DNA of 32,000 bases from Microcystis aeruginosa NIES-843 (GTDB taxonomy: Bacteria > Cyanobacteriota > Cyanobacteriia > Cyanobacteriales > Microcystaceae): assembly GCF_000010625.1 (NCBI RefSeq), contig NC_010296.1:4800001-4832000 (forward strand). The letters are read 5' to 3'. The first letter of the stretch is position 1, and each line of letters starts with the position of its first letter. Positions 5,857-15,442 of the stretch are shown one piece after another. The notes beneath the pieces are model-generated. The model saw nothing but the letters and a program-made list of their open reading frames with translations, did no database searches and was not told the DNA's origin. The position numbers and the translations under genes were made by a program.

Positions 5857-6024
5857 TAGATAGCGAGCGGGATTTTCTGGGGAAGGGGGAATGACAATCG
5901 GGTTAAAAGACAGGGTTTTTTCCTCGCAATTCTCTTTTTTATCTATTCTATAGCGGTTTTCCCCGGGGTGAGATGGGTGTTGGGGGAGTCTTTTCAGTGA
6001 TCAGCTTCTGAAGGCAAAAGGCAC

Positions 6025-6570
6025 TCATGCAAAAGGCAGCTTTATTCTCCCAACTCCGGCGCTCCCAACTCCCATCACCCCACACCCCACACCCCACACC
6101 CTGTCCCCAGGAAAAACTTTTTCAGCATACCCTAAATAGCAACCAATAATTTCCCTTGTCTTTCTATCAATTAACCGCCAAATATAAACCTTTATCGTCT
6201 TAGAAAAAACCCAAGACCACATCTCATCACATTCTCTAAACAATTTACCTTTTGGTTTGTCCGAAACCTTTACTTGACGGGGAACAGCCGCCAGTTTATT
6301 GTTGACATAATTTTGTAACCATGACCAACTTACCCCTGTTACTCTCGCAATTCCTCGCAAGGAAATTCGTTCGAGCAAGAGTTGATCAATTAATTGTTTG
6401 GTTTCGTCAGAGACGGTTTTATTAGTGGGATTGATCACCAACGGTTGACCACATTCTTTACCTTGACGTTTGGGTTTTCCATTATGAATAGAACCATTCT
6501 TGATAGTATGGTGAGAACCACAACGCTTGACAGGGGAATAGAGGTGAAGGGGGTATTTTGTTCGGTGCTA
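6025..6570 (-). pseudogene. IS1-family transposase remnant, degenerate at the N-terminus and truncated after about 105 aa at the C-terminus
   Basis: A Zn-finger/HTH part (...KRCGSHHTIKNGSIHNGKPKRQGKECGQPLVINPTN... LRGIARVTGVSWSWLQNYV) is followed by DEMWSWV...IWRLIDRKTREIIGCYLG. Homology stops at about 6137, where the heptamer/tail repeat begins. An in-frame TAG lies upstream and there is no start codon for the Zn-finger part. Confidence 0.7.
6078..6137. repeat. Second copy of the heptamer (CCCCACA x3) plus CCCTGTCCCCAGGAAAAACTTTTTCAGCATACCCTAAAT element
   Basis: Hand alignment with 3489-3554. It forms the artificial C-terminus (GVGCGVMGVGS...) of the IS1 remnant ORF. Confidence 0.7.
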
Positions 6571-6756
6571 GACTGATATTTGAGTAAGCCAGACAGGAGC
6601 CAGAAAAAGATATTTATTATAAAAGTCATGCTCAAGCTAGAGGTTTAAAGACTGAGCGGGTTGCAATTATTTTTATTAATAAATATTTTACACAATTCAT
6701 ACCAGGTAAGCAAGAGGGCTACGCCACTACTACCGAATCATTACCACATCGGTTAC

Positions 6757-6896
6757 TTTTTTTCTGGTTCAGATGGCGAGAATTGTCAGGAAAAGTCAAC
6801 CCGTCACTCCCCCTCAAGGATTTTTATCAATTCCAGTTAATCGATAAAAGCAGTACAAGTGTATTTAATTAACTGTCCGACGTTTAATTTATCGTA
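6757..6896 (-). pseudogene. Decayed duplicate of the 3' end of the CPBP protease gene (homologous to 11475-11615)
   Basis: Hand alignment shows 8 mismatches in the first 77 aligned positions, then a small indel, then further matching (GTGTATTTAATTAACTG). The minus-strand translation contains stops. Confidence 0.7.
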
Positions 6897-7318
6897 CTAT
6901 TCCCCTGTTCTATTTCTCCCAGTCTTATTAAAATTTCTGATTGATCTGGGTGATTTCTAATTTTATTGATCTCTTCATAAGTAACCTCCATAATATCAAA
7001 TAATAACCATATTAATCTTTCTCTCTTATCCTCGTCACTAAAATTTCCCCCGATGATAGCGTTTAATCTTCCTTGATATTTCTCTTGCGTTTCTTTCAGT
7101 GGAAATCTACTGATTAATTCTTGGATGTATTCCTGAAGAGTAACTATTTGAAAACAATTAAATCTAGGCTTGATAGACATATATAGGCTGGTTTTCTTGT
7201 TTCCCAATTTCTTTTGGAAAGGCTCAATAATAGATGCTTGAAATTGTTTGTACAACCCTAATATCTTTTTGATCAGACTGGAGACAGGATTAATTGTCGA
7301 TAAGCTAAATCCACCCAT
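6884..7318 (-). CDS. Hypothetical protein (144 aa from the ATG); the in-frame upstream extension to 7462 encodes a TM-like helix but has no canonical start
   Basis: It is a long ORF in AT-rich DNA and I recognise no motif. The upstream in-frame sequence reads ...DNVYVGLIIALVFGFIISSLNPNLEQIDQV-MGGF. Confidence 0.45.
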   Translation of the reverse strand: MGGFSLSTINPVSSLIKKILGLYKQFQASIIEPFQKKLGNKKTSLYMSIKPRFNCFQIVTLQEYIQELISRFPLKETQEKYQGRLNAIIGGNFSDEDKRERLIWLLFDIMEVTYEEINKIRNHPDQSEILIRLGEIEQGNSTIN

Positions 7319-7603
7319 TACTTGGTCGATTTGTTCTAAATTAGGGTTTAAGGAACTAATAATAAAACCGAAGACCAGAGCAATGATTAAACCAACATAT
7401 ACATTATCCTCGATTGAGCTTAATAGAGAAAATATAAATTGAATAAGGCTCTTCGGTAATTGTTATGCAATGGACGGGGGTTATAAGGGATGGAACCCTT
7501 ATATAGAAAGGCATTTAGCGATTTTTGTCAATTGTTTTTTATCTAGAGCGAACTAATCAATTAAGTCTCTTGCCAGATAAGGATTTAGTCGATTTATGCC
7601 CCC

Positions 7604-7960
7604 CTATCGAACCATACCAAGTAACGAAGAACCTTGAATAAAAAGGTATAAGAGTATTGATATAAGAACTTTGAGAATTAATAACCTAACAAAAGTATTT
7701 AAAAAATCCTTTTTTAAATCGGGAAATAAATGACGAATCCTAAAAGCTGAGAAATAGCTACTTCCAGTTTCAACTGCTACTCCAATAATTATCGCAGTCA
7801 CGACAAAAGGCCACCGATCTTCTCCCAGAAGTTTCCGTATTTCACTAGAAAGGTCGGTGGCGGCAGCTGTCTGAGAATCTACCAAAAATAGGTAATGGGT
7901 GAATGAACTGAAAAAAGGAAACTTATCTAATTCCGTTAGAACCTGACTACAAAATACCAT
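7604..7960 (-). CDS. Hypothetical small membrane protein (118 aa, two predicted TM helices)
   Basis: Hydrophobic segments WPFVVTAIIIGVAVETGSSYF and FVRLLILKVLISILLYLFIQGSSLLGMV are present. Its ATG overlaps the end of the upstream ORF by 14 nt, which suggests translational coupling. Confidence 0.5.
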   Translation of the reverse strand: MVFCSQVLTELDKFPFFSSFTHYLFLVDSQTAAATDLSSEIRKLLGEDRWPFVVTAIIIGVAVETGSSYFSAFRIRHLFPDLKKDFLNTFVRLLILKVLISILLYLFIQGSSLLGMVR

Positions 7961-8243
7961 TTACCCTCAGCCAACGAGTTTTCCAAGTGGGAGTAAAGAT
8001 TTTGTAGCTTTCTTCTTCATTGACTTTGATATAGCCTTTGTCCGCTAGTTTTTCTAATTTATCTTGTAAGTCAGCTTCTCCAATTCTATCTGTTTCAATT
8101 TCAAAGCTCAAGGCAGTGGCAGCCCTAACTTTGAGTAAATCAGATAAAAGAGACTTCTCCGCGGAGGTTAAATAATTGTCAGACTTAGCTGAAGTCCCAG
8201 AATCACCCTTGTCTTTGGACTTAGAAGGAAATATGTCAAGCAT
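7947..8243 (-). CDS. Hypothetical 98-aa protein with a disordered Ser/Lys/Asp-rich N-terminus and a possible winged-helix-like C-terminus
   Basis: This is the first ORF of the minus-strand operon, transcribed divergently from the HTH-NTPase gene. The C-terminal segment LQDKLEKLADKGYIKVNEEESYKIF resembles a wHTH wing, but this is a weak call. Confidence 0.5.
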   Translation of the reverse strand: MLDIFPSKSKDKGDSGTSAKSDNYLTSAEKSLLSDLLKVRAATALSFEIETDRIGEADLQDKLEKLADKGYIKVNEEESYKIFTPTWKTRWLRVNGIL

Positions 8244-8296
8244 TCTGTTTTGTGTAGTTTATAAATACACTTCGACCAGTACATCTTGATCCTCAG

Positions 8297-8414
8297 TCAT
8301 GACTCTCTGAGTTCATGACTGAGATATGTCTGAGTTTTTTGCGATAAAAGCGTAAACGACCACTCTAATCTCTGATCTCATGACTGAGATATGTCTGAGT
8401 TTTTTGCGATAAAA
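8297..8414. promoter_or_regulatory. Divergent control region with a perfect 37-bp direct repeat (8313-8349 and 8378-8414) plus a shortened third copy (8297-8312)
   Basis: TCATGACTGAGATATGTCTGAGTTTTTTGCGATAAAA occurs twice, 65 bp apart start-to-start, and TCATGACTCTCTGAGT lies just upstream. The region sits between divergent genes and ends 29 nt before the ATG at 8443. Confidence 0.55.
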
Positions 8415-8442
8415 TAGAGATTGCGTCGATTGATGGAAGTTT

Positions 8443-9699
8443 ATGGGGCGATCGCTTAAAGTAAAATCAGAATATATCCCTAGAGTCAAACAAGCAGTTA
8501 AACTCAATGGTTACGCAAGTCAAGAGCTGCTTGCTGAGGATTTAGGATTCGCAAAATCGACTATTAGCCTTTTTCTTAACGGTAAATCGATTAGTAATCT
8601 CAATTTTTTTGAAATTTGTCAAAAATTAGCCCTTGATTATCGAGAAATCACTGACTGGGATGAGTTGGAGGAAACAGCTGCTGCCACGTCTGAGGATGAG
8701 GGAGAAAACCGGGCTGCGGATTTTTCCAAGTATATTGAACGTCCTCCAGTGGAACAGCTTTGTCTGGAGACGGTGAGTCAAGCAGGTTCATTATTGCGGA
8801 TTAAATCAGCCAAGGGGATGGGTAAAACCCTATTAGTCGATAGAATTTTGAGTCAAGTTGACAAAAGAGAGTATAAAACCGTCAGTTTCAGTTTTTTACA
8901 AGCAAGTAAAGGAATTCTCGGCGATTTAGACCGATTGCTCTCTTGGTTTGCTTTGATTATTTCCAAGAAATTAGGATTAGCAGCTCTCTTTCAGGAAAAA
9001 TGGCAAGAAGGATTAGGACTTTATAGCTGTACTGCCTATTTTGAAGACCATTTGCTCAAAAAGCTGGATAAACCCCTAATTTTAGTTTTAGAGGAGATAG
9101 ATAGTCTCTTTGCCTATACCAGCGTTGCCGACGATTTCCTTAGTTTATTTCGTCTTTGGCACGAGGAGGCAAAAAATAATAATACTTGGCAAAAGTTACA
9201 CTTAATTATCACCTATTCCACAGAAAATTATGTTCCTGCTGACCTGAATAAATCTCCTTTCAATGTAGGAACAGAAATCCTGTTACCTGATTTTACTCTA
9301 GAACAGGTCTTGACTCTAGCTAATAAATATCAGGCTAACTTGGGAAAAGATGAACTGCAAAGAATAATTAATCTTGTCGGGGGACATCCCTATTTAATCC
9401 AAAAGGCGATTTATGGGATTAGCCAAAAACAACTGTCTTTAGCAGATTTTTTAGAGACAGCAGCCACGGAAGCGGGGATTTATGGGGATCATTTGCGAGG
9501 ACATTTGCTAAACTTACAAGAACATCCAAACCTAGCAGCAGGAATGAAAAAGGTTGTAGAGTCCTCTTCTCCCGTTGATTTAGGTGCAGCAATTAATTGG
9601 CAACTTCATAGTTTAGGATTAGTAACCTTTGTGCAGAATGCTGTTCAACCCCGTTATCCACTATACAGCGACTATTTTAGGTATCGCCTATCCTCCTAA
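8443..9699 (+). CDS. XRE-type HTH fused to an AAA-like (AAA_35/PF14516-type, STAND-like) NTPase
   Basis: HTH segment: SQELLAEDLGFAKSTISLFLNGK. An acidic linker follows. Other motifs are Walker A SAKGMGKTLL, Walker B LILVLEEIDSLF, SPFNVG, and a GGHPYLIQ helix. The family assignment is from memory of the YI-R...(Q)MGK(S/T) pattern. Confidence 0.75.
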   Translation: MGRSLKVKSEYIPRVKQAVKLNGYASQELLAEDLGFAKSTISLFLNGKSISNLNFFEICQKLALDYREITDWDELEETAAATSEDEGENRAADFSKYIERPPVEQLCLETVSQAGSLLRIKSAKGMGKTLLVDRILSQVDKREYKTVSFSFLQASKGILGDLDRLLSWFALIISKKLGLAALFQEKWQEGLGLYSCTAYFEDHLLKKLDKPLILVLEEIDSLFAYTSVADDFLSLFRLWHEEAKNNNTWQKLHLIITYSTENYVPADLNKSPFNVGTEILLPDFTLEQVLTLANKYQANLGKDELQRIINLVGGHPYLIQKAIYGISQKQLSLADFLETAATEAGIYGDHLRGHLLNLQEHPNLAAGMKKVVESSSPVDLGAAINWQLHSLGLVTFVQNAVQPRYPLYSDYFRYRLSS

Positions 9700-9875
9700 A
9701 ATCCAATATATTGAGTTAAACTGTTGTACATCTAAATCTAATATTCGTTTTCACCTGTTCCCCGTTCCCTCATCGAATCCAGAACTTTAAATGCGGACTA
9801 GCTTAGGCACAGATAACCTTTGATTAAATTATTCATCGAACTTAACCAATCAGACAAATTGCTAATTTTAATGCT

Positions 9876-10997
9876 ATGGCGACCAATTTTTATCATATTG
9901 GAGGCAGCGTCCCCCTAAATGCACCTAGTTATATCAAGCGGGAAGCAGATGATATATTTTATGACTATCTAAAAAATGGACAGTATTGCTATGTGTTAAA
10001 TTCCCGTCAGATGGGAAAATCAAGTTTGTGGGTACAGACACAAAAACGACTGCAAGAGGATAATATTGATTGTGCTACCATTGATTTGAGTGGTATAGGA
10101 AAAAACATCTCCGAAGATATTTGGTATCGAGTATTATTTGAGCAACTGGTTAAACGATTTGATCTTTCTATTCGGGGAAAAGAGCAAACTTGGTGGGATG
10201 AACGAGCCTATAAATCAGCTATTAATCGTCTTGATCAATTTGTTGAGGACATTCTCTTAAAGGAGGTATCCCGACCTATTGTTATCTGTTTTGATGAAAT
10301 TGATAGCGTTCTGAGTTTAAAATTTTCCACAGATGATTTCTTTGCTTGGCTGCGTAGCTGTCATGAAAAACGTCCTCATAATAGGGATTACCAACGTCTA
10401 ACCTTTTGTATGTTGGGGGTAGCGGCAGTTTATAACTTTATTCTAGATAATAATCGTAGTCCTTTTAATATTGGTCAAGATATTCGATTATCTGGATTTA
10501 CTATAAGGGATGCCAGAAAACTTGCCGAGGGATTGCAGGACAAAGTTCCCAATCCACAAGGGGTTTTAGAGGAGGTTATAGACTGGACAGGTGGACAACC
10601 ATTTTTAACTCAAAAAATTTGTCGTTTAATCTCCACATCTCGCCCTGAATTTGGCAAGGAATCCCCAGCAAACCCGATTAATGTCGGCGATTTTATCCAG
10701 TCGCAAGTAATTAGTAACTGGGTATCTCAAGATAGTCCAGAACACCTAAAAACTATTCGGAATCGTTTATTAAATAAGCGTGTCACGGGTAGAAGAATGC
10801 TGAAGCTTTACCTAGAAATTTTAAGAAATGGTGAAATTACCGATGATGGTAGTCTTGATCAAATAGAATTACGCTTAACGGGATTGGTAGTTGAAGACCG
10901 ACAAAAGTTAAAAGTTTATAATAAGATTTATAGAAATGTTTTTAATGAAACTTGGGTGACAACCGATGAACGACCTGGCCACAATTTTTGGAATTGA
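9876..10997 (+). CDS. Stand-alone AAA-like (AAA_35-type, STAND-like) NTPase, a paralogue of the upstream gene
   Basis: Motifs YIKREADD...LNSRQMGKSSL (Walker A), VICFDEIDSV (Walker B), SPFNIG and GGQPFLTQ are present. The C-terminal LRLTGLVVEDRQKLKVYNKIYRNVFNETWV is typical of this family. It aligns motif-for-motif with 8443-9699. Confidence 0.8.
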   Translation: MATNFYHIGGSVPLNAPSYIKREADDIFYDYLKNGQYCYVLNSRQMGKSSLWVQTQKRLQEDNIDCATIDLSGIGKNISEDIWYRVLFEQLVKRFDLSIRGKEQTWWDERAYKSAINRLDQFVEDILLKEVSRPIVICFDEIDSVLSLKFSTDDFFAWLRSCHEKRPHNRDYQRLTFCMLGVAAVYNFILDNNRSPFNIGQDIRLSGFTIRDARKLAEGLQDKVPNPQGVLEEVIDWTGGQPFLTQKICRLISTSRPEFGKESPANPINVGDFIQSQVISNWVSQDSPEHLKTIRNRLLNKRVTGRRMLKLYLEILRNGEITDDGSLDQIELRLTGLVVEDRQKLKVYNKIYRNVFNETWVTTDERPGHNFWN

Positions 10998-11401
10998 CTG
11001 TATTGATTATTGGGGGTTAAAATTTCCAAGAAAAATCCTGTACCACCAGAGAAACTATTCCCTAGTTCTGATGTATTACCAAACATTAAACCGAAACCAA
11101 ACATCCAATAAGCCAAGGCAGAAACACAGAAGACAATTAGGTTTTTAGCTAAGACATTAGTGGCGTTATTAGTACGACAAAAACCCGTTTCCAGCATGGC
11201 AAAACCCGCATTCATAAAGAATACTAACGAGCCGGCTATTAACATCCAGAGATTAGCAACTAAATCCAGAGTAGAATTATTTAAATCTTGTGCTGTGACT
11301 TTGCCTACACCGATCAACAGCATGACAATAAGAGAGAAACAAAAAGATAGGATATTACGCAAACGCGGGCGATATTCTAGAAAAGATAATAATCGATTCA
11401 T
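10928..11401 (-). pseudogene. amt: Ammonium transporter (Amt) gene truncated after about 125 codons; only about 11025-11401 is Amt-like
   Basis: LWMLIAGSLVFFMNAGFAMLETGFCRTNNATNVLAKNLIV...WMFGFGLMFG...GFFL is a typical Amt N-terminus. The remainder of the ORF runs into the 3' end of the opposing NTPase gene and is unrelated sequence. Confidence 0.8.
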
Positions 11402-12564: not shown

Positions 12565-12764
12565 CGTTTCTCTCCTTTGAATCTATATCGCAAATACAGG
12601 TCAATTACTTAATGATCATAATCAAAATTTCCAGATTGAGCTAGGCTTTTTCTGTGATCCGTGAGGGGGTTGGGTGTTGGGGAGTGGGGGACAGCCAAAG
12701 GAATGACATTTCTAGATAGATAGATCATAATTGAATTAATTGGCTAATTTAAGCTTATTTTTCC

Positions 12765-13265
12765 ATGGCTACTGACGAATTACAAAACCTCGAAGACAAT
12801 ATTCAACGCTTAAAACAACAATTAGCGGGAATCCGCGATGCGTGGACAGGTGCGCGTCCAGAAGATAAAGTTCTTTTGCAGCAACGCATAAACGATAAGC
12901 GCATAGAAATTAAAGAATTGGAACGAGAAAAATGGGATTTAATCGCCAGCGAGAGTCAAGAAGCATCTTTTCCTGATGCCGAGGTAATGGTAGCAGAAAT
13001 TGTCACAGAATTGACGGCAATTACCAAAGAACCACCCTCAGAACTTGCTTCTGCACAAATCTTAGAATTATTAAATCAAATTCTGGCTAAACTCAATCAA
13101 CCAGAGCGATCGGCAGCAGCCAAATTAAAAGCGGCCATATCTACTATACCCCCTTTTGTTTCCCTGACCTACGAAGCGGAATTAGATACTGAGTCAACTT
13201 TTAAGCGTTATTTTCCCACATTTAATCGTGCGATCGCAGGAGTGAAAAATCGTCTAAAAAAGTAA
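12765..13265 (+). CDS. Uncharacterised 166-aa coiled-coil/helical protein, candidate N-terminal module of the downstream STAND NTPase
   Basis: The N-terminus is heptad-rich (LQNLEDNIQRLKQQLAGI...RINDKRIEIKELEREKW), followed by an acidic linker and a helical C-terminal half. The ORF ends ...CTA AAA AAG TAA, 23 nt before the NB-ARC ORF. Confidence 0.6.
   Translation: MATDELQNLEDNIQRLKQQLAGIRDAWTGARPEDKVLLQQRINDKRIEIKELEREKWDLIASESQEASFPDAEVMVAEIVTELTAITKEPPSELASAQILELLNQILAKLNQPERSAAAKLKAAISTIPPFVSLTYEAELDTESTFKRYFPTFNRAIAGVKNRLKK
13256..13262 (+). promoter_or_regulatory. Candidate -1 ribosomal frameshift heptamer A_AAA_AAG, or alternatively an A6 indel hot spot
   Basis: The zero-frame codons are cta AAA AAG taa. 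The -1 frame (aaa aaa gta agt att ccc tct atc cct agt aat GTG) has no stop and is the frame of ORF 13289-15442. An SD-like AGGAG lies at 13238-13242. Confidence 0.35.
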
Positions 13266-13288
13266 GTATTCCCTCTATCCCTAGTAAT

Positions 13289-15442
13289 GTGGGCAAAAGT
13301 ACGGTTAATTTTGTCGGGAGGGAAGATGAGTTAACCTTAATTCATCAGAAATTGCAAACAGAACAAGGGGTGATTGTTTGCGCGGTGGAAGGGTTAGGGG
13401 GAATAGGAAAAACCGCTTTAGCTTTGGAATATGCGAAACGATACCAACAGGAATACGCGGCACAATATTGGTTATCCTTGCGACTATCGGGTTTAGCAGA
13501 AGAAATAGTTAAATTAGCCGCTCCCTATCTATCTTTACCAGAAATATTGAAAAAAGAATCTTTAGAAAAACAAGTGTACTGGTATTGGCAAAATTGGCTA
13601 CCTCAGCAGGGAAAATTATTATTAATTCTCGATGATGTCCCCAATATCGACAGAATTCCCGATCGAATGTTACCAAAAGATTCTAGGATTAAGATATTAG
13701 TCACCACTAGGGAAAGGTGTCTTAGTACGGAATTTGAGTCTATAGCTTTAGATGTTTTACCCTTAGATAAATGTGTGGAATTATTAACCAAAATTGTTGG
13801 TACTGCTAAAGTTGAGCAAGAAAAAGCTTTAGTAGAACAGATCTGTCACGAAATTTTAGGACGCTTAACCTTAGCAGTGGAGTTAGTGGGGGAATATTTA
13901 GCGAAAAATCGTCATTTAAAGTTTAGCCATTTACGCGATAAATTAAATTTAGCTCATACTGCTTTAACCAAGGAAAGAAACCACAGAGATTATGGACATT
14001 TAGGGGTAGCAGCCGCAATTAAAATCAGTTGGGATGATTTAAGTTCTGCTGTTCAAAAAGTGGCAATACTGTTGAGTTTATTCGCACCAGTGGCTATTGC
14101 TTGGACGTTGCTAGAAGATACGGCAAAATCCACGGAAATTACCGAAAGCGAACTAGAAGAAGCGCGGGGACAATTGGATAATTCTCATCTGATGCAACCC
14201 GTGGATGAGGACTATTCTTTTTATCGGATTCATCCCCTCGTGAGAGAATTTTTTCAACAGCAATTACAGGAAATTCCTAAGATAAATTCTCTTTATCGAT
14301 GCGCTTTTGTGGAAACTTTGTTAACCATTGCCGAAAATATCCCGCAAACCCCCACAAGGGAGATTATTGCAGCAGTAACTCCCGCAATTCCCCATCTGCA
14401 ACTTGTCAGTCAAACCATGTTAGATGATATTCCCAACCTGGAAGATAATTTAATTCAGGTGTTTCTTGGGGTAGCTTTGTTTTATAAGGGACAGGGAGAA
14501 TATGATTTAGCAGCAGTTCCCTTAACAAAATGTTGTGAAGAAATCCAATCTCGCTTAGGAGAAAACAATCTCTATTTTGCTAGCAGTCTCAATAATTTAG
14601 CACTATTATACAAACCCCAAGGCAGATACGCAGAAGCGGAACCCTTGTATAAGCGCTCCCTTTCTCTGATAAAACAGCTATTAGGAGAAAACCATCCTAG
14701 TGTTGCTACCAGTGTCAATAATTTAGCACTCTTATATCAATGCCAAGGCAGATACACAGAAGCAGAATCGTTGTATAAGCACTCCCTTTCTCTAAGGGAA
14801 CAACTATTAGGAGAAAACCATCTCGATGTTGCACAAAGTCTCAATAATTTAGTAGTGCTATACGAATACCAAGGCAGATACGCAGAAGCGGAACCCTTAT
14901 GTAAGAGATGCCTTTCTCTGATAGAACAGCTATTAGGAGAAAACAATCTCTATTTTGCTACCATTCTCAATAATTTAGCGGAATTATACCGCTTCCAAGG
15001 CAGATACGCAGAAGCGGAACCCTTGTCTAAGAGATGCCTTTCTCTGAAAGAACAGCTATTAGGAGAAAACCATCCCGATGTTGCACAAAGTCTCAATAAT
15101 TTAGCTTTTTTGTACCAATGCCAAGGCAAATACGCAGAAGCGGAACTGTTGTATAAGCGCTCCCTTTCTCTGCGGGAACAGCGATTAGGAGAAAACCATC
15201 CTAGTGTTGCTAAAAGTCTCAATAATTTAGCGGTATTATACGAATCCCAAGGCAGATACGCAGAAGCGGAACCGTTGTATGTGAGAGCTATTGCTATTTA
15301 TCAAGAAAGATTAGGAGAAAATCATCCCCATACCCAAAAAGTAAGGCAAAATTTTATGATTCTGTTGTCGCGATTATCCGATGAAGAATTACAGCAAAGA
15401 TTCCCCGATGAGATAGTTAATCTCTTAAAAAGTATCAGGTAG
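13289..15442 (+). CDS. NB-ARC (STAND, NLR-like) NTPase with C-terminal TPR array and no N-terminal effector domain
   Basis: It has a GTG start, with the P-loop beginning at about residue 33 (GLGGIGKTALA). Other motifs are Walker B LLLILDDV, KILVTTRE, a degenerate GLPL (LGRLTLAV), and IHPLV at the MHD position. Seven 42-aa kinesin-light-chain-type TPR units follow. Confidence 0.9.
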   Translation: MGKSTVNFVGREDELTLIHQKLQTEQGVIVCAVEGLGGIGKTALALEYAKRYQQEYAAQYWLSLRLSGLAEEIVKLAAPYLSLPEILKKESLEKQVYWYWQNWLPQQGKLLLILDDVPNIDRIPDRMLPKDSRIKILVTTRERCLSTEFESIALDVLPLDKCVELLTKIVGTAKVEQEKALVEQICHEILGRLTLAVELVGEYLAKNRHLKFSHLRDKLNLAHTALTKERNHRDYGHLGVAAAIKISWDDLSSAVQKVAILLSLFAPVAIAWTLLEDTAKSTEITESELEEARGQLDNSHLMQPVDEDYSFYRIHPLVREFFQQQLQEIPKINSLYRCAFVETLLTIAENIPQTPTREIIAAVTPAIPHLQLVSQTMLDDIPNLEDNLIQVFLGVALFYKGQGEYDLAAVPLTKCCEEIQSRLGENNLYFASSLNNLALLYKPQGRYAEAEPLYKRSLSLIKQLLGENHPSVATSVNNLALLYQCQGRYTEAESLYKHSLSLREQLLGENHLDVAQSLNNLVVLYEYQGRYAEAEPLCKRCLSLIEQLLGENNLYFATILNNLAELYRFQGRYAEAEPLSKRCLSLKEQLLGENHPDVAQSLNNLAFLYQCQGKYAEAELLYKRSLSLREQRLGENHPSVAKSLNNLAVLYESQGRYAEAEPLYVRAIAIYQERLGENHPHTQKVRQNFMILLSRLSDEELQQRFPDEIVNLLKSIR
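14591..15346 (+). repeat. Six tandem 126-bp units encoding near-identical 42-aa TPR repeats, with a degenerate seventh at 14465-14590
   Basis: AATAATTTAG recurs exactly every 126 nt (14591, 14717, 14843, 14969, 15095, 15221). Long identical nucleotide blocks such as GGCAGATACGCAGAAGCGGAACCC recur. Confidence 0.92.

Follow-up and report, generated by a model that had tools for sequence, protein, structure and literature searches.

The window analyzed here is a 32,000-nucleotide (nt) stretch of the Microcystis aeruginosa NIES-843 genome (NC_010296.1, positions 4,800,001 to 4,832,000), and all coordinates below refer to it. Between 12765 and 15442, two open reading frames (ORFs) follow one another on the + strand. 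ORF1 (12765..13265) is the zero-frame product, a protein of 166 aa (18.8 kDa, pI 5.1) that ends in ...NRLKK followed by TAA. ORF2, as called by ORF finders, runs from a GTG at 13289 to 15442 (717 aa). Its frame is the -1 frame of ORF1, and the -1-frame continuation from 13262 to 15442 has 726 codons plus a stop, encoding a linker (VSIPSIPSN), an NB-ARC NTPase domain and an array of tetratricopeptide repeats (TPRs). In every public record examined, ORF1 is annotated as 'hypothetical protein' and the NTPase as a separate, apparently headless NB-ARC protein. A preliminary description of the locus likewise took the NB-ARC protein to be without an N-terminal domain and the 166-aa module to be simply a separate upstream gene. 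The comparative data favour a join by -1 recoding instead, and we consider that 12765-15442 is probably one recoded gene for a cyanobacterial NLR-like STAND protein.

The NB-ARC domain of ORF2 (13322..14035, + strand; residues 12-249) matches PF00931 with E=5.5e-18. Its Walker A motif, GLGGIGKT, occupies residues 35-42 (nt 13391-13414), close to the position first given for it by eye (about residue 33). The C-terminal part contains about six TPR_12/TPR_10 units (Pfam, TPR_12 E=2.9e-96) and includes a tandem array (14555..15280, + strand) of 126-nt (42-aa) units in 5.8 copies with 81% matches, which is the presumed sensor region. ORF2 thus has both an NB-ARC domain with Walker A and a C-terminal repeat sensor, as in STAND/NLR-like proteins. 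In PADLOC it gave only a generic TPR match (E=9.7e-10), with no Avs or NLR model, and the NCBIfam model FxSxx_TPR scored 270 bits, under its cut-off of 300. The protein is outside every named antiphage family in PADLOC.

The junction of the two reading frames

ORF1 ends on the heptamer A_AAA_AAG (13256..13262, + strand), which is read in the zero frame as cuA AAA AAG and so stands in the X_XXY_YYZ phase; we propose it as the -1 shift site. The zero-frame stop TAA (13263..13265, + strand) lies directly 3' of it. The -1 frame is open only from 13226, and between this position and the heptamer it contains no ATG, GTG or TTG. Two features of a programmed -1 frameshift site are present, an in-phase heptamer within a short frame overlap and, among distant orthologues, its conservation beyond what the protein sequence needs. 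Neither the in-phase heptamer nor the position of ORF2 in the -1 frame appeared in the preliminary description, which named a 'frameshift fusion' only as an object for modelling. The predicted trans-frame product has 166 + 726 = 892 aa (101 kDa) with the junction ...NRLKK-VSIPSIPSNVGKSTVNFVGREDEL.... It predicts the peptide VSIPSIPSNVGK after ...NRLKK, as against MGKSTVNFVGR if translation started at GTG 13289.

A Shine-Dalgarno (SD)-like element, AGGAG (13238..13242, + strand), lies 13 nt 5' of the heptamer and is a candidate frameshift stimulator. Its duplex with the anti-SD sequence, at -7.5 kcal/mol, ranks among the best 4% of ORF2 positions. This element has the same spacing in Microcystis, Merismopediaceae, Limnothrix and Pseudanabaena (the RLKK lineages), where it is encoded by differing residues (AGV, KGV, KEA, KEL, REI, RGL). 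Compared with Rfam, the junction gave no frameshift-element match. We rejected a sequencing or assembly error in the A-run, as many independent assemblies (Illumina, metagenome and complete-genome) carry it unchanged; the exact ORF1 in the same arrangement was also found in four independent Logan assemblies.

Conservation of the proposed slip site across cyanobacteria

One genome per species was scanned with the signature-motif pattern taken from alignment A3 of the ORF1 family, which returned 59 loci from Microcystis, Merismopediaceae, Limnothrix, Pseudanabaena, Microcoleus, Coleofasciculaceae, Stenomitos, Leptolyngbya, Nostoc, Anabaena and others. Outside Microcystis, the module is 36-57% identical to that of the window. 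In 49 of the 59 species loci, an in-phase slippery run precedes a -1 ORF that spans 150-1076 codons or is cut by a contig end. Three loci are fused in frame via one extra A (A10 in L035; A7 in L043 and L049), and seven are decayed or otherwise different.

The run in the 49 recoding loci is A_AAA_AAG (A6G) or A7, with A9-A10 in Nostocales, and every A6G locus has codon phase 2. In the relatives, the zero-frame stop comes 1-9 nt after the A-run (1 or 4 nt after A_AAA_AAG in nearly all loci), with one outlier at 37 nt (L042), and the +1 frame is closed in nearly all of the 49. The codon before Lys-Lys ends in A whether it encodes L, A, V, P or G (CTA, GCA, GTA, CCA, GGA). As a background, in-phase A_AAA_AAR occurs in the NTPase ORFs at 8e-4 per codon, and 22 of 82 KK dipeptides (27%) are slippery there.

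The -1 ORFs encode NB-ARC+TPR, NACHT or nSTAND4 proteins; because these belong to three STAND clades, the slip site appears to travel with the module. In L035 and L043, the sequence that continues in frame is homologous to what relatives encode in their -1 ORFs. Sequence comparison thus shows that three features have been conserved across cyanobacteria and three STAND clades: the slip site, the phase in which it is read and the long -1 ORF behind it. The association of the module with STAND genes, proposed from the window alone, is borne out: the module lies directly 5' of a STAND NTPase or TPR ORF in 49 of the 59 species loci. Far from being never associated with STAND NTPases, it is fused to them in frame in L035, L043 and two database proteins described below (P0225, P0253). 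The finding is probably larger than first noted, in that a conserved recoding site would join an undescribed helical module to NLR-like NTPases across cyanobacteria.

Some loci show other arrangements. L062 (5001-5700) has no A-run, and its NTPase lies in the module's frame after a single TAG (...LKGQSND*LQSSGS...FVGRDQAL...GMAGVGKS), which could be a case of stop-codon readthrough, a separate start or a pseudogene. In L014 (5495-6424), SNQGGSDNTQNSTN comes right after the shift site and leads into a hydrophobic segment and TPRs; an NTPase is absent. In L015 (5501-5800), the shift site is followed by a 98-aa linker with GGDIKANISQQIENN...GGEVRIENLYV. The Q/N/G-rich stretches of L014 and L015 may be internal amyloid-type motifs in fused versions of the protein.

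Three states of the locus in Microcystis

The contiguous state was found in 17 Microcystis loci from independent assemblies, including the window. All 12 complete contiguous loci have an open -1 ORF of 691-834 codons; among further contiguous loci, two carry ORFs of only 584 and 402 codons, and in four the contig ends within the locus. This variation in ORF2 length between strains, from 691 to 834 codons, and the ~81% identity of the 126-nt TPR units suggest that the repeat number changes by recombination. Such changes have been described for fungal and bacterial NLR repeats.

The split state was found in 10 loci (L006, L065-L070, L081-L083), which carry a 775-nt block at 13277/13278. The block contains, in order, a -1 extension, a RelB-like antitoxin (65 aa), a ParE toxin (88 aa) and a new ATG for the NLR; the RelB-like/ParE pair may be either a passenger or part of the system. 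The length of the block leaves a remainder of 1 on division by 3, and where the block is absent the NLR lies in the -1 frame of ORF1. Beyond the heptamer, the -1 frame of the split alleles reads VSIPSKSLAGIERTINISQSGIGNTQNNIFNL-stop and ends in the Q/N-rich motif TINISQSGIGNTQNNIFNL. The NLR opens from the new ATG as MKINIEQDGTDNNQNNTFNLNIPEPKERQAV-PSNVGKSTVNFVGRE... and carries a matching motif, MKINIEQDGTDNNQNNTFNL. The two motifs, TINISQSGIGNTQNNIFNL and MKINIEQDGTDNNQNNTFNL, are identical at 12 of 18 positions, a value reached by none of 20000 composition-preserving shuffles. We used the shuffle test because BLASTP, which gave E=0.15 for the pair, lacks the sensitivity for a low-complexity motif of 18 aa. 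No shared Q/N-rich motif is present in the window allele, whose linker is VSIPSIPSN.

The upstream 18-aa motif is identical in all 10 split loci, and its three nucleotide changes are all synonymous in the -1 frame. Comparison of the alleles shows the -1 extension of the split strains to be under protein-level constraint. As read from these alleles, the effector-side motif is reachable only through a -1 shift, which argues independently for translation of the -1 frame beyond the heptamer in Microcystis. The NLR itself is intact in four split loci (L006, L068, L081, L082), broken in five and cut in one. We considered this decay as proof of dependence on the fusion and set it aside, since the contrast with the nearly all-intact contiguous loci is only suggestive.

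In the remnant state, represented by NIES-87 (L005, 6001-6414), ORF1 is reduced to a 137-aa remnant (...PPFVSLLGR) and the NLR is replaced by two DUF4351 genes. Remnants of 136-137 aa are numerous among database proteins and are still intact ORFs.

Alternative explanations

The strongest rival, which we nevertheless think unlikely, is that the locus consists of two ordinary genes. ORF1 would encode a free 166-aa adaptor or effector, its A-rich end doing no more than specify a conserved basic tail, and the NB-ARC/TPR protein would start at GTG 13289 (13289..13291, + strand), perhaps by termination-reinitiation, the two acting non-covalently. This GTG is codon 10 of the -1 frame, 24 nt after the stop and ahead of the FVGR motif at codon 17. 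The split alleles fit this reading too, as their NLR has its own ATG and is intact in the four loci named above, and ORF1 remains an intact 166-aa ORF in all split strains. In most other lineages, however, the -1 frame has its first ATG, GTG or TTG beyond the conserved FVGR motif, and the -1 ORF offers no start codon ahead of its conserved domain. The first such codon of most Nostocales loci is found only at codon 184-274, past Walker A at codon 88, so that independent initiation cannot yield a working NTPase there. Two separate genes would also not account for a heptamer kept at the nucleotide level behind five different residues or for natural in-frame fusions by one extra A, and the conserved NLR-matching motif in the split-allele -1 extension would stay untranslated. 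GTG 13289 is thus an unlikely main route to the NTPase.

A second possibility, to which we give slightly less credence still, is transcriptional slippage, in which RNA polymerase would add one A in the A-run and bring part of the mRNA into frame. In the window and at most loci the run is no longer than A6 with a G behind it, a canonical ribosomal heptamer and a short run for a polymerase; moreover, the strict codon phase (phase 2 in all A6G loci) matters to the ribosome, not to the polymerase, and the SD-like element lies at the right spacing. What speaks for slippage is that Nostocales relatives have A9 or A10 runs, that the in-frame genomic variants differ by exactly one A and that the window has no significant downstream structure. 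Slippage at A9/A10-type run lengths is documented for dnaX in Thermus and other genes (PMC3711429).

Finally, a decaying or phase-variable gene, in which a fused NLR has lost 1 nt in a homopolymer and the long protein is absent or made only after a reverting replication slip, is very improbable: homopolymer indels do occur in the family (the A7 and A10 in-frame variants and the decayed L006, L037, L050, L059 and L060) and the NLR part decays frequently in Microcystis, but 49 of the 52 loci with an intact partner ORF are out of frame, always requiring -1 and never +1, the -1 ORFs run uninterrupted through 600-1076 codons in lineages whose synonymous sites have diverged to saturation, a run of six A lacks the length that efficient phase variation needs, and 12 of 12 complete contiguous Microcystis loci keep the NLR ORF open over 691-834 codons.

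Several observations weigh against a recoded gene. The RNA 3' of the slip site in the window folds no better than shuffled sequences (z=0.0 over 73 nt; z=0.4); a stem between 13269-13276 and 13317-13324 exists, and we rejected it as a downstream stimulatory hairpin since the fold equals that of shuffles. Across the loci, exceptional hairpins are few: they were found in 13 of 52, lie 5-8 nt 3' of the site and are unrelated in sequence and lineage-specific. In Microcystis, the GTG at 13289 precedes the conserved FVGR motif, a junction-spanning query of the protein database found no in-frame Microcystis fusion, and the conserved Lys-Lys tail alone could hold the heptamer within this genus. The split NLR starts at an ATG of its own, and at least 4 of 10 loci keep it intact, which means that covalent fusion is not obligatory in Microcystis. 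A tRNA-Lys(CUU), where present, would lower slippage on AAG. Lastly, recoding is predicted here by the comparison of sequences, and the role proposed below for the free module is purely what we infer.

The helical module encoded by ORF1

By eye, ORF1 had been described as a coiled coil, an acidic linker and a helical region that could not be assigned to any family. The AlphaFold model, built from a 46-sequence alignment, agrees with this layout: it is all-helical (mean predicted local distance difference test score, pLDDT, 88.5; predicted template modelling score 0.78), with a long hairpin (H2-29/H32-64), an acidic linker at residues 65-71 and then six shorter helices. This model supersedes an earlier one from a shallow 13-sequence Microcystis alignment (pLDDT 60), in which the hairpin alone was confident. 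The N-terminal antiparallel hairpin (12768..12956, + strand; residues 2-64) has pLDDT 84-96.

The difficulty of assignment also persists. ORF1 gave no Pfam, NCBIfam or PADLOC family match beyond coiled-coil noise, no PDB match by sequence or sequence profile, and no match to the Pfam models of effector-associated domains (EADs). Foldseek searches of the model against PDB and BFVD returned nothing significant (best PDB E=0.23, TM<=0.39). The top PDB matches are designed bundles and weak ESCRT-III/CdvB hits (E 0.3-0.6), which we regard as leads only, and no helical pore-forming structures were among the Foldseek matches. Two of the 46 family members match EAD9 (Pfam) over the hairpin at a sub-threshold E=0.008, and a further member, P0164, reaches 13.8 bits (E=0.05) against a cut-off of 25, again over the hairpin and as a lead only.

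The most conserved stretch of the family (alignments A2, A3) is the signature motif AAAKLKxxISxxPPFxxxxYExELDTExxxRRxFPTF at residues 117-153 (13113..13223, + strand). Among Microcystis alleles, the most variable part is 12831-12920 (residues 23-52), which covers the hairpin tip and second helix and exists in two classes of allele, IRDAWTGARPEDKVLLQQRINDKRIEIKELE and KRDTLVKIAPEEEVRIKQQIEDLRRKIRDFE; over its C-terminal two thirds, ORF1 hardly varies. This variation may reflect specificity or diversifying selection.

An exhaustive HMMER search (E<=1e-3) gave 196 cluster representatives at 50% clustering. Most are stand-alone proteins of 160-170 aa. Two are in-frame fusions without an A-run, P0225 (module, nSTAND1/AAA_16 and TPR) and P0253 (module and nSTAND1), and P0169 is a fusion of module and TPR. 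The module is also found C-terminal on an SNF2 helicase, a NACHT-like protein and a Roc-COR protein. In P0127 and P0136, an SNF2 helicase and a 490-aa unknown domain are fused ahead of the module and both proteins end at an ...ALAKK/ALAKR site; they may be followed by a -1 STAND ORF as well. Judged on its sequence relatives, the 166-aa module belongs to an undescribed family, and its association with STAND/NLR proteins is genuine.

Comparison with known recoding and signaling systems

The recoding signal belongs to the dnaX/IS3 type. The closest parallel at the slip site is the tau/gamma programmed -1 frameshift of E. coli dnaX, which has the identical A_AAA_AAG, an SD-like element upstream and two products with a common N-terminus (PMC3711429). 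In dnaX, however, the shifted product is the short one, whereas here it is predicted to be the long one, and the dnaX hairpin has no significant counterpart in the window.

In IS3/IS911 and in lambda G/GT, the common N-terminal region oligomerises, and the short form is more abundant and cooperates with or regulates the long form. Our locus resembles IS3/IS911 OrfA-OrfAB and the lambda tail chaperone G/GT (PMC5009743) in its short zero-frame and predicted long -1 products sharing an N-terminal helical region. It differs in its downstream part, a STAND NTPase with TPRs in place of a transposase catalytic domain or a tape-measure-binding domain. The locus also has no terminal inverted repeats and no mobile-element context, unlike insertion sequences. 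We rejected an insertion-sequence OrfA/OrfAB pair because NB-ARC and TPRs make up the downstream ORF and the neighbouring genes encode ClpS and ribosomal proteins.

Amyloid-signaling systems offer a second comparison. A Q/N-rich motif that ends the upstream protein and starts the NLR is their defining layout (bioRxiv 10.1101/2020.01.06.895854), and one such pair, Bab/Agp, works in antiphage defence (bioRxiv 10.1101/2024.11.07.622273). As in Bell-BASS/NLR, Bab/Agp and the fungal HET-S/NWD2, the gene for a small helical protein stands immediately 5' of one for an NB-ARC/TPR protein. As in these pairs, the module is either NLR-fused or separate, and the split alleles have a short Q/N/G-rich motif on both proteins. 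Unlike them, the window allele has no motif and a predicted covalent link via recoding, and the effector-side motif of the split alleles, amyloid-type in its sequence, needs a -1 shift. Bell domains have ~100 aa and a hydrophobic first helix, whereas the module has 166 aa and a charged, amphipathic N-terminus (MATDELQNLEDNIQRLKQQL); we rejected Bell-domain identity on this length and N-terminal helix character, the two being compared by description.

The module also recalls the EADs of NTP-dependent conflict systems (Kaur et al., 2020, PMC7159879): it too is a small, non-enzymatic, all-helical domain, found N- or C-terminally on STAND, Roc-COR and SNF2 proteins. Like EADs, it would occur in two copies tied to one system, mostly in multicellular or colonial cyanobacteria. 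It differs from them in that no Pfam EAD model is matched over threshold and in that the second copy would be the zero-frame product of the same gene, not fused to an enzymatic effector.

An analogy with plant CC-NLRs and fungal HeLo-NLRs had been proposed, and it holds in part. The predicted long product has the same order as plant CC-NLRs (ZAR1 type) and fungal HeLo-NLRs, with a helical N-domain, NB-ARC and a repeat sensor. The analogy with HeLo/HELL and Bell gains support because the module occurs both NLR-fused and separate via a shared motif. It fails at the level of structure, since by Foldseek the module resembles neither the four-helix-bundle, pore-forming executioner domains of the CC, HeLo or MLKL type nor Bell-type structures; it has no sequence similarity to the plant CC-NLRs or HeLo-NLRs either. 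To our knowledge, no recoding has been described in plant CC-NLR or fungal HeLo-NLR families. The module resembles the Bell/HeLo- or EAD-type in genomic logic and lacks the traits by which membership of each can be tested.

Proposed mechanism

Under a recoded gene, ordinary decoding would yield the 166-aa helical N-module, ending at TAA 13263. A fraction of ribosomes would slip -1 on A_AAA_AAG, probably aided by the AGGAG 13 nt upstream and the adjacent stop codon, and continue through VSIPSIPSN into NB-ARC and TPR to give the 892-aa protein. The receptor would thus have an N-terminal domain, and the cell would also keep a pool of the same domain free. The TPR array would sense a ligand and NB-ARC would oligomerise, so that the attached N-modules cluster and act as output. 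The clustered N-modules would most likely recruit or nucleate the free 166-aa copies via like-with-like hairpin contacts; alternatively, the free copy might restrain the receptor. In the split alleles, the shared Q/N-rich motif would stand in place of the covalent link, as in amyloid-signaling effector/NLR pairs. We infer a useful shift rate in this strain, the N-module as output domain of the receptor, and a free copy recruited by or restraining the tethered one.

More tentatively, as an idea less likely to be right than wrong, a conserved programmed -1 frameshift could be built into a widespread cyanobacterial NLR-like family and fix the ratio of free to tethered signaling or death module. 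Split alleles would then swap the tethered copy for one that carries an amyloid-type coupling motif, and the activated receptor would nucleate the free module. If true, this would be a one-gene equivalent of a sensor with an ASC-like adaptor, or of NWD2 with HET-S, in which the recoding efficiency sets the trigger threshold.

Genomic context

The locus is flanked on one side by genes for ClpS and an Rce1-like protease and on the other by a ribosomal-protein/rpoA block, all on the - strand. A promoter-like site, ATGACA-17-CATAAT (12703..12731, + strand), matches at 10 of 12 positions and is a weak consensus only; the number of promoter-like sites in the region is not above that in shuffles. We found neither a + strand promoter-like site within 13100-13290 nor a terminator-like site separating ORF1 from ORF2, which is consistent with a single transcript for both.

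Elsewhere in the window, a low-GC stretch at ~6000-11000 (GC 0.35-0.40) includes two AAA_35 ('AAA-like domain') NTPase genes (8443-9699 and 9876-10997 on the + strand). These have replaced most of an ammonium transporter gene, of which 157 aa (10928-11401 on the - strand) remain compared with the full 505-aa gene in other strains. The interval from amt to ClpS looks like a variable island of conflict-type NTPases.

Significance

NLR-type STAND proteins are central to animal, plant, fungal and bacterial immunity, and their output normally passes through an N-terminal domain. Because annotation splits the gene, surveys of bacterial NLR architectures would misclassify this family as effector-less. 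In the literature searched, we found no report of frameshifting in STAND/NLR genes. If confirmed, the locus would represent a non-mobile, non-viral cellular use of -1 frameshifting, and the first that we could find in an immune-receptor family.

Microcystis would then provide a natural experiment, with a covalent (recoded) and a split (motif-coupled) receptor in one genus, linking fused NLRs with amyloid-signaling pairs. The 166-aa module is a candidate death or signaling domain in a bloom-forming cyanobacterium, in which phage defence is ecologically important.

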